Assembly (NCBI RefSeq): GCF_024298765.1
Contig: NZ_CP101210.1
Length of the DNA: 64,000 nt
Strand: one strand, 5' to 3'
Source of the DNA: Escherichia coli
Lineage (GTDB): Bacteria; Pseudomonadota; Gammaproteobacteria; Enterobacterales; Enterobacteriaceae
How positions within the stretch are numbered: the stretch's first letter is position 1; each line of letters begins with the position of its first letter. Both the position numbers and the translations under genes were made by a program. Positions 42,583-48,599 of the stretch are shown one piece after another. A model generated the notes under the pieces. That model did no database searches, was not told the origin of the DNA, and saw only the letters and a list, made by a program, of their open reading frames with translations.

Positions 42583-43488
42583 ATGGTACAAAGTATCAAT
42601 CTTCTTCGAACCAGTGATACTCCTATGGCTTATAGCATCGATATCATCTCCTGCATTACCGAACGGTTTATGGCGTTAACAGCCACTGAAAAGCGTATCG
42701 CACAATTTATTCTTGATGACGTCTCTGCCGCAGTAGAGTTGCCAATTGCTGAGCTGGCACGGTTAACGCAAACCAGTCAGGCGTCGGTGACGCGTTTTGC
42801 CCGTGCACTGGGGTGCAAAGATGTCCGCGAGTTGAAAGTCAAACTGGCGCAGTCACTGGCTGTCGGGCAGCGGTTTATTCTCGATGTACCGGATCTTGAC
42901 GGTGTTCAGGGGATCTACGAAGCGATTATTAGCGTGCTGGAGACGCATCGTCGTTCGCTGGATATGAATGCCATCAGCCAGGCTGTAAGCTGGTTAAGTC
43001 AGGCGCGGCAAATTCTTGCGTTAGGAACTGGCGGCGGTTCCACTATCTGTTCACAGGAGATTCAGTACCGTTTATTCCGTCTGGGGCTACCGGTGGTCAG
43101 TCAGAATGATGCCCTGATGATGAGAATGATGTGCTCGGCAGTCATGCCGCAGGATGTGGTGATTGTGCTTTCGCTGGGCGGTTATACACCGGAAATCATC
43201 GAAAGTGCGGCAATCGCCCGTCAGTATGGCGCGCGTGTTATTGCCATTACGCCAGCACAAACACCGCTGGCGGAACAGGTGGATCTGGTATTGCCGTTAC
43301 TGGTTCAGGAAAGTGATTACATCTTTAAGCCCACCCCTTCCCGCTACGCGATGTTAGCCATGGTCGATGTACTGGCAACAGAACTGGCAATGGCAAATAA
43401 AGCGCAGGCGAAAGATCGCCTGCGGCGGATAAAACTCGTGTTAGACAGCCACCGTGGGGGCGCTAACCGCCAGCCACTTGGCGATTAG
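42583..43488 (+). CDS. RpiR/MurR-family transcriptional regulator (HTH_6 + SIS domain)
   Basis: 301 aa; HTH segment AELARLTQTSQASVTRFARALG; no clear Shine-Dalgarno, start may be ATG 42625. Confidence 0.75.
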   Translation: MVQSINLLRTSDTPMAYSIDIISCITERFMALTATEKRIAQFILDDVSAAVELPIAELARLTQTSQASVTRFARALGCKDVRELKVKLAQSLAVGQRFILDVPDLDGVQGIYEAIISVLETHRRSLDMNAISQAVSWLSQARQILALGTGGGSTICSQEIQYRLFRLGLPVVSQNDALMMRMMCSAVMPQDVVIVLSLGGYTPEIIESAAIARQYGARVIAITPAQTPLAEQVDLVLPLLVQESDYIFKPTPSRYAMLAMVDVLATELAMANKAQAKDRLRRIKLVLDSHRGGANRQPLGD

Positions 43489-43497
43489 CATTGTCGG

Positions 43498-44967
43498 TTA
43501 TGCTTCTTCAGGTTTGGTGATCACGACACTCTGGTTTTCACGCTCATTGGTGATAATAGCCAAAGCTTCTTCCCGGCTGACCTGACTTGCTGGCGTTACC
43601 AACGTCACCAGTACGCCAGCGACCAGGCTGCCCAGCACTGACGGAATACACGGGTTACCCCAGTAAGCCAGCCAGTCGGCATTCATCAGCACCACAATTG
43701 ACATCACCATACCGCTCACTAACGCCGCCAGCGCGCCCTGCCAGTTAAAGCGTAGCCAGAAGCGACCGAGAATCGAGCAGATAAACAGCCCGGACATCAG
43801 CATCGAAATCATTTTGGTAATGTAGCTGATGATGTCATTAGAGGTCAGAGCAAAGACCAGCGCCAGGCCAATAACAAAGGTCAACATCCAGCGTGAGTAA
43901 GTAATGGCCTTGTCCTCCGGCGGCATTCTGCCGGTAATCATGGTGTAGACGTCGCGCATCATAATCGCCACCGCCGCGATGGCATCGGAGCTGGCAGAAG
44001 ACATGGTGGCTGAAAGCCCGGCAATCAGCACCACCAGCCCAAGAATGGCAGGTAAGAAACTGGTCGCGAACAAGAAGGCGTAGTTGCTGTTTTCCAGATT
44101 TGGGTTCATGGTGAACGCCGCCATGCCGATAATGGCAGGCAAAATCGAGAAGAACAGATATAACACCCCAGTAATAACAAACGAACGGCGTACAGAGGGA
44201 ACATCTTTACCCGAGTAAATACGCTGGCGATAAGACGGTGTTGCCAGCACACCTACGCCAATAACCAGTGCCAGCGAAAGCGCAGGCAGCACGCCCATTT
44301 TATCAATCGCAAACAGGCTCATCGCTTTTGGGTCCATCGCCTGCTCAATCGCACTCCAGCCGCCAACGTGAACAACGGCAAGAATAGCCATTAATATAAA
44401 GCCAAAGAACAGAATTAGGGCCTGAATAGTATCTGTCCACACTACCGCCGAATAACCGCCGATAATAACGTAAATCGCAAAAGCTAAGGCAATAATTAAT
44501 TTTGCCACCGTAAGATCAATACCTGTTGCCCAGGCAAGATACATACTTCCACCTAATATATGCGCCCCCAGCCAGCCAATAGAGGCAATAAATATCATCA
44601 GGCCGACAATATTTTTAATTAAATGACTACCGCCAGTATAATAAGAGAGTTCTTCACTCATGGTCATAAAACGTAATTTACGTACCGGTGCAAACAGCCA
44701 CGCCACCAGCAATATACCAACGGCTCCACCGACGCCATAAAGCATTCCGGCCCAGCCATTGCTGTAGCCAAAGCCCACTGCCCCCATACTGGAACCCGTG
44801 CCAACCATCGTGGCAACGGTTGACCCCAGCGTCAGAAACAGCGGCAGCGAACGCCCGCCCAGCAGAAAATCTTCTCCGCTTTTCTGATTACGAGAAACAA
44901 ACCAACCAAGCCAAATCATGGCGATGGCATAAATAATAAAGCCGACTAAAAAGATATGACTGTTCAT
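43498..44967 (-). CDS. sodium:solute symporter (SSS) family transporter
   Basis: 489 aa polytopic; N-terminus typical of PutP/PanF-like symporters. Confidence 0.8.
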   Translation of the reverse strand: MNSHIFLVGFIIYAIAMIWLGWFVSRNQKSGEDFLLGGRSLPLFLTLGSTVATMVGTGSSMGAVGFGYSNGWAGMLYGVGGAVGILLVAWLFAPVRKLRFMTMSEELSYYTGGSHLIKNIVGLMIFIASIGWLGAHILGGSMYLAWATGIDLTVAKLIIALAFAIYVIIGGYSAVVWTDTIQALILFFGFILMAILAVVHVGGWSAIEQAMDPKAMSLFAIDKMGVLPALSLALVIGVGVLATPSYRQRIYSGKDVPSVRRSFVITGVLYLFFSILPAIIGMAAFTMNPNLENSNYAFLFATSFLPAILGLVVLIAGLSATMSSASSDAIAAVAIMMRDVYTMITGRMPPEDKAITYSRWMLTFVIGLALVFALTSNDIISYITKMISMLMSGLFICSILGRFWLRFNWQGALAALVSGMVMSIVVLMNADWLAYWGNPCIPSVLGSLVAGVLVTLVTPASQVSREEALAIITNERENQSVVITKPEEA

Positions 44968-45012
44968 AATTCACATCCTGCCAGTAGAGAGAAATTAATG
45001 TAAGAGTTCCCG

Positions 45013-45036
45013 GAGTGCTGAATGTATTCAGCACTC
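45013..45036. promoter_or_regulatory. near-perfect 11-bp-arm palindrome between RidA and symporter genes
   Basis: gagtgctgaat gt attcagcactc; operator or RNA hairpin. Confidence 0.4.
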
Positions 45037-45069
45037 AATTGCGGTCTGTTTTTTTAATTCTTAAATTTA

Positions 45070-47034: not shown

Positions 47035-47061
47035 AACTAAATATTTATATTTCATTTAGTT
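47035..47061. promoter_or_regulatory. inverted repeat (aactaaat-N11-atttagtt) in the AT-rich divergent promoter region of the islet
   Basis: read directly from sequence. Confidence 0.3.
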
Positions 47062-47111
47062 ACAAATGATACTCACATCCGATACGGTGAAAAACTTAAA
47101 AGATAAATGTT

Positions 47112-48332
47112 ATGAAATACCACTCAGAACCTCTGGTTCCCCATAAATCTGCCCTGATGCAAATGCCCGCAAATCTCCTTGCCGAAGATGTCTGTTTACC
47201 TGCCGCGATCATTAAAAAGCAGGCCCTGGAGAACAACATTACGTGGATGCAACGCTACGCTGACGCGCGCGGCGTTTCACTGGCACCGCACGGTAAAACC
47301 ACCATGACGCCGTGGATTTTTCAGGCGCAGCAGGCGGCTGGTGCCTGGGCAATAGGTGTCGGTAGCGCATGGCAGGCTGGTGCGGCAATGGCGAGCGGTA
47401 TTCAGCGAGTGCTGATGGTTAACCAGCTGGTCGGCAAGGCGAATATGCAGTTGATTGCCCAGTTGCAACGACATTACCCGACGGTCGATTTTATCTGCTG
47501 TATCGACAGCATTGAGAACGCCCGCGCTTTGTCTGCCTTTTTTGCCAGTCAGCAACAGACACTGAACGTGATGATTGAGTTGTGTGTCCCCGGCGGGCGC
47601 TGTGGTTGCCGCTCAAGGGATGCCGCACTGACACTGGCTAAACAGGCAGCCCAATTACCGGGGTTACGCCTGCGGGGGCTTGAGTTATATGAAGGCGTTT
47701 TACACGGTGACGATCCACAACCGCAGGTAGAAGCTCTGCTGCGGGATGCCGCACAACTGGCCTGTGATATGGCAAGTCTGGTTGATGGCGAGTTTATTCT
47801 CACCGGAGCAGGCACGGTCTGGTATGACGTGGTGTGCAATATCTGGCTGGCGGCAGAAAAGCCTGATAACTGCCGCATTGTTATTCGCCCTGGCTGCTAC
47901 ATCACTCACGACACCGGGATCTACGACGCGGCACAACAACAGTTGCTTGCCCGTGATCCTGTGGCCTGCGATCTGGCAGGCGATCTCACATCTGCGCTGG
48001 AACTGGTCGCCATGGTGCAATCGGTGCCGGAAGCTGATCGTGCGGTGGTAAATTTTGGTAAGCGTGATTGCGCCTTCGACGCCGGACTGCCGCAACCAGT
48101 CGCCCACTACCGCAACGGCAAATCACTGGCATTTGATCCACAGGCGATTCGCAGTACAGGTATTATGGATCAGCACTGCATGTTGCAACTGTCAGCTAAT
48201 AGCGACGTGCAAGTGGGGGATATTCTGGTGTTTGGCACATCGCATCCGTGCCTGACCTTCGACAAATGGAAAACGTTGTTATTGACTGATGACGACTACA
48301 ACGTACTGGCAGAATTAGACACTCTCTTCTAA
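47112..48332 (+). CDS. DSD1-family (alanine-racemase-like) PLP enzyme: D-serine dehydratase-like or D-threonine aldolase-like
   Basis: 406 aa; SLAPHGKTT candidate PLP-lysine motif near N-terminus. Confidence 0.7.
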   Translation: MKYHSEPLVPHKSALMQMPANLLAEDVCLPAAIIKKQALENNITWMQRYADARGVSLAPHGKTTMTPWIFQAQQAAGAWAIGVGSAWQAGAAMASGIQRVLMVNQLVGKANMQLIAQLQRHYPTVDFICCIDSIENARALSAFFASQQQTLNVMIELCVPGGRCGCRSRDAALTLAKQAAQLPGLRLRGLELYEGVLHGDDPQPQVEALLRDAAQLACDMASLVDGEFILTGAGTVWYDVVCNIWLAAEKPDNCRIVIRPGCYITHDTGIYDAAQQQLLARDPVACDLAGDLTSALELVAMVQSVPEADRAVVNFGKRDCAFDAGLPQPVAHYRNGKSLAFDPQAIRSTGIMDQHCMLQLSANSDVQVGDILVFGTSHPCLTFDKWKTLLLTDDDYNVLAELDTLF

Positions 48333-48335
48333 GAA

Positions 48336-48370
48336 CGCCCCTTCGGTTAATTATCGAAGGGGCATTTTTA
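48336..48370 (+). terminator. intrinsic terminator after the DSD1-like gene
   Basis: gccccttcgg...cgaaggggc hairpin followed by attttta. Confidence 0.7.
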
Positions 48371-48599
48371 TTGTGATCTCAATCACATATCCACCCGACG
48401 AATAATTCTTGCCCAACCGCTCACCGCCATTCCTGACCGCTTACGTCCCTAAAATAACCACTCAGTTATTTACCTTACTTTACGCGCGCGTAACTCTGGC
48501 AACATCACTGCAGGATAGCGGTCAATTTACCTCCTCAAACGCAACGCAAACCTAGAACGGCTTCGGCCAACTATTAATCAATACATGCCAGGTTTTACT

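Follow-up and report, generated by a model that had tools for sequence, protein, structure and literature searches.

The core genes tsr and btsT of Escherichia coli are separated, in the 64,000-nucleotide stretch of DNA analysed here (RefSeq assembly GCF_024298765.1, contig NZ_CP101210.1; hereafter the window), by an islet of only five genes, which encode a MurR/RpiR-type regulator, a symporter of the sodium:solute symporter (SSS) family, a small RidA-family protein, an amidohydrolase annotated as a deacylase, and a DSD1-like pyridoxal phosphate (PLP) enzyme. All five open reading frames (ORFs) are intact. The islet is probably the cytoplasmic core, in five genes, of the ong (oxidised N-acetylglucosamine) cluster, that is, a reduced module that would scavenge free N-acetyl-D-glucosaminate (GlcNAc1A), the oxidised sugar released from chitin, and pass 2-keto-3-deoxygluconate (KDG) to the core enzymes KdgK and Eda.

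The amidohydrolase, RidA and symporter genes lie on the minus strand and converge on the regulator gene, and the PLP-enzyme gene is divergent from the amidohydrolase gene (Table 1). A first-pass annotation of this DNA had described a five-gene islet of these families, missing from K-12, with an operon in which the deacylase and RidA genes are translationally coupled, and this structural description stands. All five ORFs were recovered at the same coordinates; NCBIfam, Pfam and the Prokaryotic Genome Annotation Pipeline (PGAP) agree on their families (MurR/RpiR; SSS superfamily; Rid family; N-acyl-D-amino-acid deacylase; PF01168 with PF14031), and no domain search assigned any of them to an unrelated family. 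The operon layout holds and the junction is exact, with the deacylase TAA at 45471-45469, AAGGAG at 45470-45465 and the RidA ATG at 45459. Just 377 bp separate tsr from btsT in a K-12 derivative, where the two genes are direct neighbours; alignment with K-12 shows homology stopping near 42503 and restarting near 48372, so that about 5.87 kb (~42504-48371) stands in place of about 95 bp, and the point of restart coincides with a CRP-like TGTGA-N6-TCACA site. E. coli strain 14EC020 matches the window at 100% identity; PGAP names the five products there MurR/RpiR regulator, sodium:solute symporter, RidA family protein, N-acyl-D-amino-acid deacylase family protein and 'amino acid deaminase'. The alignment with OngR fits the PGAP start of the regulator gene (42625) better than the start of the longest ORF (42583).

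Table 1. Features of the tsr-btsT interval and its flanks, in window coordinates
Feature	Position	Strand	Basis and remarks
tsr, core gene, left flank	40779..42443	-	ORF scan, PGAP
Inverted AGTATCA pair	42592-42598 (+) and 42615-42621 (-); span 42592..42621		Candidate operator, immediately upstream of where ongR starts
ongR-like gene, MurR/RpiR regulator (HTH_6 + SIS)	42625..43488	+	Longest ORF 42583-43488; PGAP start 42625
ongIT-like gene, sodium:solute symporter, SSS family	43498..44967	-	ORF scan, PGAP
Hairpin in the ongD-ongIT spacer	45013..45036	-	Perfect 10-bp stem GAGTGCTGAA/TTCAGCACTC, 4-nt loop, no T-run
ongD-like gene, RidA-family protein	45070..45459	-	ORF to 45465; PGAP start 45459
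ongB-like gene, putative GlcNAc1A de-N-acetylase, subtype V amidohydrolase, D-aminoacylase fold	45469..46911	-	ORF to 46920; PGAP start 46911
Divergent ongB/ongC control region	46912..47111		Conserved blocks TGAATAAAAGTATCA; TTTTGCGTAGTTTTCCACTGTTTTT; CTTGTAAATGGTTAAC
AGTATCA copies in the ongB/ongC control region	47002-47008 and 47067-47073		Motif count
ongC-like gene, fold-type III PLP enzyme, DSD1-like	47112..48332	+	ORF scan, Pfam
Intrinsic terminator after ongC	48337..48373	+	11-bp stem, 7 G-C pairs, T-run; strong
CRP-like site TGTGATCTCAATCACA before btsT	48372-48387		Diverged version also in K-12
btsT/yjiY, core gene, right flank	48600..50750	+	ORF scan, PGAP

The ong route was established in Pseudoalteromonas prydzensis by knock-outs, complementation and in-vitro product identification (PMC9537276, 2022). 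In this organism GlcNAc1A is imported by the SSS transporter OngIT, whose gene is essential for growth on GlcNAc1A, and is deacetylated by OngB to D-glucosaminate, which OngC, a fold-type III PLP enzyme, deaminates to KDG; phosphorylation by KdgK then follows, no phosphorylation taking place before deacetylation or deamination (PMC9537276). The RidA protein OngD is likewise essential, with no role assigned to it there, and OngR is an RpiR repressor whose action is relieved during growth on GlcNAc1A and whose ligand was not identified (PMC9537276). Reference proteins were taken from a contig of only 2.7 kb that carries the exact P. prydzensis OngB (PpOngB) and from the complete cluster of Pseudoalteromonas sp. 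ZZD1, which has an OngB 92% identical to PpOngB and serves as a proxy for strain ACAM 620 in the case of OngC and OngIT. Full-length identities of the islet products to these Pseudoalteromonas proteins are 44% for OngR, 58% for OngIT, 83-84% for OngD, 54% for OngB and 45% for OngC. The defining paper counts as an ong cluster at least four co-located ong homologues with E < 1e-5 and > 30% identity (PMC9537276), and the islet offers five adjacent, full-length homologues at 44-84% identity. Moreover, Supplementary Data 3 of that paper scores 13 E. coli strains, E. fergusonii ECD227 and one Escherichia sp. as ong-positive, with plus signs for ongC, ongR, ongB, ongD and ongIT and minus signs for lpmo, ongOT-1, kdgK and ongA (PMC9537276); the gene order in 14EC020 (ongC, then ongB-ongD-ongIT, then ongR) and the spacing of its locus tags match the E. 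coli entries. Since the five genes correspond both to the published ong core and to the cluster tabulated for E. coli, the present result amounts to a sound re-annotation, with no new pathway involved: the islet is already catalogued, and the pathway is characterised in another organism. The earlier belief that no such pathway had been characterised had been overtaken by the 2022 work.

The complete oxidative chitin pathway is not encoded at this locus, as none of kdgK, the glycoside hydrolase (GH20) gene ongA, the TonB-dependent ongOT-1 or a gene for a lytic polysaccharide monooxygenase (LPMO) lies between tsr and btsT. Among 5,426 complete E. coli genomes, host kdgK is found in 5,421 and eda in 5,425, and owing to this near-universality the kinase and aldolase steps can be covered by core genes despite a cluster without kdgK. 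The upstream steps are a different matter: because E. coli lacks an LPMO, a periplasmic GH20 OngA and a TonB-dependent importer, the module would be limited to free monomer coming from other organisms or from chemical oxidation.

With regard to the substrate, the deacylase may be compared with enzymes of known structure. Among PDB chains it scores 938 bits against the Klebsiella pneumoniae enzyme KleDacyl (9G5M; 84% identity), 560 bits against PpOngB (9KB1) and 458 bits against the D-aminoacylase of A. faecalis (1M7J). The crystal structure of PpOngB with GlcNAc1A (PDB 9KB1/9KB3; Wang et al., JBC 2025, PMC12017989) defines the metal ligands Cys97, His222 and His252, the base Asp368, the anchors of the acetamido and carboxylate groups (Tyr194, Lys254, Tyr285, Arg379, Ser291) and the residues that bind the C3-C6 hydroxyls (Ser292, Glu226, Ser290, Gln298). 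The E. coli deacylase aligns with PpOngB without a gap, at an offset of 3, and all of the metal, catalytic and nine hydrogen-bonding contact residues are identical, together with Ala193 and Ala256, so that, cavity position 348 aside, it carries the residues of an OngB-type deacetylase. Where OngB has Ala193, Ala256, Gln298 and Gly348 in the cavity, the A. faecalis enzyme has Phe191, Met254, Leu298 and Met346, and the Bordetella enzyme has Arg295 (PMC12017989); the E. coli deacylase has Ala, Ala, Gln and Asn in place of the four A. faecalis residues and accordingly falls outside the AfDam type (EC 3.5.1.81). The Ser-Ser-Gln-Ala-Ala signature was found in 83 of the 83 deacylase homologues retrieved, in which position 348 is Gly, Asn or Cys. 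PpOngB, PaOngB and PfOngB, the two homologues being 76% and 57% (PfOngB) identical to PpOngB, deacetylate only GlcNAc1A, with undetectable activity on N-acetyl-D-amino acids, and true D-aminoacylases are conversely inactive on GlcNAc1A (PMC12017989); on N-acetyl-D-serine in particular, little or no activity was seen (PMC9537276). At 54% identity to PpOngB, the E. coli deacylase may be set beside the 57% of the GlcNAc1A-specific PfOngB. It is thus likely, judging from residues and alignments, that the deacylase removes the acetyl group from GlcNAc1A and not from an N-acetyl-D-amino acid, a placement made by signature residues and the published tree, with one true D-aminoacylase sequence for comparison.

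The first-pass annotation had instead favoured a true N-acyl-D-amino-acid module, in which N-acetyl-D-serine, N-acetyl-D-threonine or another such compound would be imported and deacylated by a D-aminoacylase, the free D-amino acid being dehydrated or cleaved by the DSD1-like enzyme while RidA quenches the imine. The PGAP name of the deacylase family speaks for this view, as does the ability of OngC to deaminate D-Ser and D-Thr in vitro, and a further argument comes from KleDacyl, the K. pneumoniae 'D-acylase' WP_002887553.1 (PDB 9G5M/9GV8), which is D-enantiospecific and acts on N-acetyl-D-Met, N-acetyl-D-Phe, N-acetyl-D-Trp and N-acetyl-D-aminobutyrate (PMC12149444). The kinetics of KleDacyl are nevertheless of the side-activity kind, since on N-acetyl-D-Met and N-acetyl-D-Phe its Km is 19-32 mM, while kcat/Km lies at 1.5-2.8 per min per mM (~25-47 M-1 s-1; PMC12149444). 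Its authors remarked on a puzzling polar, water-filled side-chain pocket, in which the crystal holds glycerol in contact with Glu220, Lys248, Gln292 and Asn342, without mentioning OngB or GlcNAc1A or citing the ong work (PMC12149444); a bound glycerol is what would be expected of a pocket that binds polyols. An exact-sequence look-up of KleDacyl returned no genomic record; on the strength of the 84% identity and of the statement in the 2022 paper that Klebsiella carries ong clusters, it is provisionally placed in a Klebsiella ong cluster. The two proteins are most probably one enzyme in sister genera, KleDacyl being the Klebsiella OngB. Given in addition the replaced D-aminoacylase pocket, the inactivity of the three OngBs on N-acetyl-D-amino acids, and a transporter, regulator and RidA protein that are likewise Ong orthologues, we regard a module for N-acyl-D-amino acids as improbable, and the substrate class named in the first-pass annotation is not retained.

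A second alternative concerns the single named position at which the E. coli enzyme and PpOngB differ. All 21 Enterobacterales/Burkholderiales-type sequences have Asn at position 348, where Vibrio has Cys and Pseudoalteromonas and Pseudomonas have Gly, and the change from Gly to Asn could reflect a related substrate in the Enterobacterales, candidates being free D-glucosaminate or another N-acetyl-2-amino-2-deoxy-aldonate, for example N-acetyl-galactosaminate or N-acetyl-mannosaminate. The contact of the corresponding Asn342 of KleDacyl with bound glycerol and the broad specificity of OngC would suit such a shift. On the other hand, all of the PpOngB residues that hydrogen-bond the C3-C6 hydroxyls of GlcNAc1A are unchanged, position 348 varies inside clusters that the 2022 authors classed as ong (Cys in Vibrio), and no data point to another sugar acid; a switch of substrate therefore seems to us an outside chance, and GlcNAc1A remains the preferred one.

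Among the remaining products, the PLP enzyme has the Ala_racemase_N (PF01168, E = 2e-12) and D-ser_dehydrat (PF14031, E = 4e-16) domains and the PLP lysine of the DSD1-like/D-serine dehydratase family (fold-type III). OngC and PDB 3GWQ resemble it much more than D-threonine or hydroxyaspartate aldolases do: it shares 45% identity over 386 aa with the OngC homologue of Pseudoalteromonas sp. ZZD1 and scores 356 bits against 3GWQ, as compared with about 100 bits or less against D-threonine aldolases. The lysine of APHGKT and the SHPC motif are conserved with 3GWQ; a C-terminal His-x-Cys is the metal motif of DSD1-like enzymes. The enzyme is probably a D-glucosaminate ammonia-lyase yielding KDG, as its similarity to OngC suggests.

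Canonical RidA identity was considered for the small protein, whose score against TIGR00004 (Rid family detoxifying hydrolase) is 82.2 bits, under the cut-off of 106.25, although the arginine of the 'PAR' motif, the catalytic one, is kept and aligns with solved RidA structures. OngD is a distinct and very conserved Rid clade, 83-86% identical among E. coli, Pseudoalteromonas and Vibrio, where its operon partners reach just 44-69%, an unusually tight constraint relative to those partners. It probably acts as an imine/enamine deaminase that completes the OngC reaction. The symporter and the OngIT homologue of Pseudoalteromonas sp. ZZD1, which is closely related to the characterised strain ACAM 620, share 58% identity over 473 aa. 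The symporter falls under all NCBIfam equivalog cut-offs (128 vs 515 bits for PutP) and is a probable GlcNAc1A importer. The regulator, 44% identical to Pseudoalteromonas OngR over its full length, is probably the repressor of the module. HexR, an RpiR regulator responsive to 2-keto-3-deoxy-6-phosphogluconate, is its best NCBIfam match (NF008451), an identity that was discarded because the 199 bits scored fall short of the cut-off of 296; a separate hexR is present elsewhere in E. coli.

The pathway that these assignments would form begins with uptake of free GlcNAc1A by the OngIT-like symporter, a role suggested by its resemblance to a homologue of the essential OngIT. The OngB-like amidohydrolase, with its conserved catalytic and contact residues, would convert GlcNAc1A to D-glucosaminate and acetate, and the OngC-like enzyme, by orthology, would eliminate water and ammonia from D-glucosaminate to give KDG. 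The RidA-like OngD, we propose, would accelerate hydrolysis of the enamine/imine that OngC sets free; KDG would then be phosphorylated by the host KdgK and cleaved by Eda to pyruvate and glyceraldehyde-3-phosphate. The OngR-like RpiR/SIS protein is expected to keep ongB-ongD-ongIT and ongC repressed as long as neither the substrate nor a downstream metabolite is available, probably by way of conserved AGTATCA-containing sites; its SIS domain had suggested a phosphosugar-like effector in the first-pass annotation. The order of reactions proposed in the first-pass annotation (uptake, de-N-acylation, PLP-dependent elimination, action of RidA on the enamine/imine) would agree with ong chemistry, and the 2022 authors themselves wrote of this N-acetyl-2-amino sugar acid, GlcNAc1A, being broken down 'akin to N-acetyl-D-amino acids' (PMC9537276). 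Taken as a whole, that annotation was right about the domains, the layout of the operon, the lack of the islet in K-12 and the chemical logic, and wrong about substrate class and novelty.

Several observations weigh against the assignment to a GlcNAc1A-scavenging ong module. Identity to the characterised OngR and OngC is just 44-45%, and the substitution of Asn for Gly348 falls in the cavity of the deacylase. KleDacyl hydrolyses some N-acetyl-D-amino acids, which PpOngB does not (PMC12149444, PMC12017989), GlcNAc1A was not among the substrates assayed for KleDacyl (PMC12149444), and OngC also deaminates D-Ser and D-Thr (PMC9537276). No published experiment on the use of GlcNAc1A by E. coli or any other enteric bacterium was found among the papers searched. 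Finally, in at least one strain, E272, ongIT is a pseudogene with an internal stop (gene at 2540-4009 of the retrieved locus).

The islet also has candidate regulatory sequences of its own. A phylogenetic footprint of 14 Enterobacterales loci revealed three strongly conserved blocks in the ongB/ongC region, and of the five copies of AGTATCA in the window four lie in the two control regions of the islet. The pattern recurs in Leclercia and Franconibacter, the latter having the same inverted pair at the start of its regulator gene, and is missing from the Pseudoalteromonas and Vibrio clusters; these sites are accordingly put forward, from motif conservation, as candidate operators of the enteric OngR. 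The spacer between ongD and ongIT folds at -21.8 kcal/mol (z = -2.6), and its hairpin is a possible mRNA processing or stability element, through which the enzymes and the transporter could come to differ in mRNA level. A scan for sigma-70 promoters gave 7 matches vs 6.7 in shuffled sequence, and no promoter is claimed; an Rfam scan of the islet for riboswitches and small RNAs at E <= 0.1 gave no match.

Islet DNA occurs in 194 of the 5,426 complete E. coli genomes and is near-complete in 193 (~3.6%), always on the chromosome; all five products were annotated by PGAP in 59 of 60 sampled positive genomes. Synteny of all five extends to Leclercia, Franconibacter, Cedecea, Rahnella, Buttiauxella and Shimwellia (73-95% identity) as well as to Vibrio (44-86%), and ong clusters have been reported from terrestrial Gammaproteobacteria including Klebsiella, with an added kdgA in Vibrio, Klebsiella and Serratia (PMC9537276). 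In Leclercia the cluster abuts tsr and is accompanied by an extra gene for an aldolase of the DgoA/Eda type (2-keto-3-deoxy-6-phosphogluconate type) and an ORF of 303 aa, after which come hpa genes. In E. coli the gap between tsr and btsT is a variable slot, empty in K-12, occupied in PCN033 by hpaB/hpaC next to btsT, in E272 by ong plus genes for an Ldh-family oxidoreductase and for an APC permease, and in the window by ong alone; a segment of 63 bp (48354 to 48416) is shared by the window with hpa-type strains and not with K-12. A mobile genomic island was considered and set aside, as there is no tRNA, no integrase and no junction repeat of at least 7 nt, and GC content is 51.5% against a background of 51.3%. 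Because signs of mobility are missing and the same cluster stands beside tsr in Leclercia, an old variable segment is preferred to a mobile island; the islet looks like an old segment shuffled vertically and by recombination under purifying selection, and not like a recent arrival.

A third alternative is that the islet is a decaying remnant without current function, left over from a larger enterobacterial ong-hpa region that lost kdgK, kdgA and the upstream chitin machinery. The islet is missing from 96% of complete genomes and lacks the kinase and aldolase genes that Leclercia has, the ongIT of E272 is broken, strain HH45 retains just 39% of the islet (ongC and part of ongB), and the adjoining lgoT of the strain analysed here is a pseudogene. 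The lgoT gene, for a galactonate-type transporter of the major facilitator superfamily, lies beside tsr (39369-40730) and is split into frames of 318 aa and 129 aa; in 14EC020, which is identical here, PGAP records an internal stop in it and classes it as a pseudogene. Against decay stand the five intact ORFs of the window, the near-uniform annotation of all five products in the sampled positives, the promoter-region blocks conserved across genera, and the core kdgK and eda that cover the missing steps. Moreover, two E. coli alleles about 1.6% apart differ at 71 synonymous and 15 non-synonymous sites, and their ratios of non-synonymous to synonymous rates (dN/dS), 0.00-0.12, indicate purifying selection. 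A remnant without function is thus very unlikely, and a maintained ong module is the better account of the islet.

Some further observations concern the surroundings and relatives of the islet. Downstream of yjiA (~52004-52422) there is a gene for a BrnA antitoxin and a truncated BrnT toxin pseudogene, as annotated in 14EC020. In Pseudomonas an OngB-like gene (62-63% identical, with the full OngB signature) is found with an RpiR regulator and a GntP/gluconate-type permease, in P. vancouverensis (7673-11952 of the retrieved locus) and about 55 other Pseudomonas loci, usually with no adjacent OngC or OngD and with a gene for a methyl-accepting chemotaxis protein nearby; these loci are a different packaging of the first pathway step. 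The pairing with a gluconate-type permease supports the ong reading of the islet, as do the aldolase gene of Leclercia, the added kdgA of other clusters and the wide synteny of the five genes. In evenly spaced samples of the hit lists, birds (chickens, turkeys and others) were the hosts of 17 of 60 islet-positive and 0 of 28 islet-negative genomes (Fisher p ~0.001, with clonality and sampling bias uncorrected).

A broader scenario may be sketched, in which a minority of E. coli lineages, E. fergusonii and many LPMO-less enterics keep the stripped-down ong scavenging module, which would supply them with carbon and nitrogen of their own in the gut, perhaps above all in poultry, with OngD as an obligatory RidA-type deaminase of 2-imino-3-deoxygluconate. 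The scavenged substrate would be free N-acetylglucosaminate or glucosaminate arising from LPMOs or sugar oxidases of other microbes or from host oxidative chemistry acting on N-acetylglucosamine. This scenario is offered tentatively, as less likely than not.

The re-annotation corrects two names in the databases, PGAP's 'N-acyl-D-amino-acid deacylase family protein' for the deacylase and 'amino acid deaminase' for the PLP enzyme, and it joins two literatures, on oxidative chitin catabolism and on D-acylase biocatalysis, that do not cite each other; in the structural paper of 2025 the Klebsiella enzyme, 84% identical, figures solely as a D-acylase (PMC12149444). It also predicts that the ~3.6% of E. 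coli strains with the islet grow on N-acetylglucosaminate by means of five accessory genes and the core kdgK and eda. If this is true, the islet would open to commensal and pathogenic E. coli a nutrient niche confined to particular lineages, and would offer a convenient genetic system for the role of OngD and the effector of OngR. The islet reveals no new kind of system.

Comparison with known systems places the islet among its relatives. At the level of the deacylase, KleDacyl has the same polar pocket of Gln292, Glu220, Lys248 and Asn342, whereas the A. faecalis D-aminoacylase (1M7J; 47% identity) and the Bordetella N-acyl-D-glutamate deacylase (3GIP) share the fold, the metal site, the catalytic Asp and the carboxylate and acetamido anchors with the E. 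coli enzyme and differ in the pocket, which is hydrophobic in the former (Phe, Met, Leu, Met), basic in the latter (Arg295) and polar in E. coli. At the level of the cluster, the ong genes of P. prydzensis resemble the islet in their adjacent and tightly spaced ongB and ongD, their RpiR-type regulator and the same predicted chemistry from GlcNAc1A through D-glucosaminate to KDG. In P. prydzensis ongCRBD form one operon, whereas in the E. coli islet ongC is divergent, ongR is convergent and the candidate operator is different; E. coli moreover lacks a TonB-dependent receptor, the GH20 enzyme OngA, an in-cluster kdgK and an LPMO. Within the enteric bacteria, the dgaABCDEF system of Salmonella, said to have been described by Miller et al. 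in 2013, reportedly combines a phosphotransferase system of the mannose family with a D-glucosaminate-6-phosphate ammonia-lyase. It is thus said to bring a 2-amino-2-deoxy-gluconate into the metabolism of phosphorylated KDG and Eda as well, reportedly with unrelated proteins and with phosphorylation as the first step, whereas in the ong route deacetylation and deamination proceed without prior phosphorylation.

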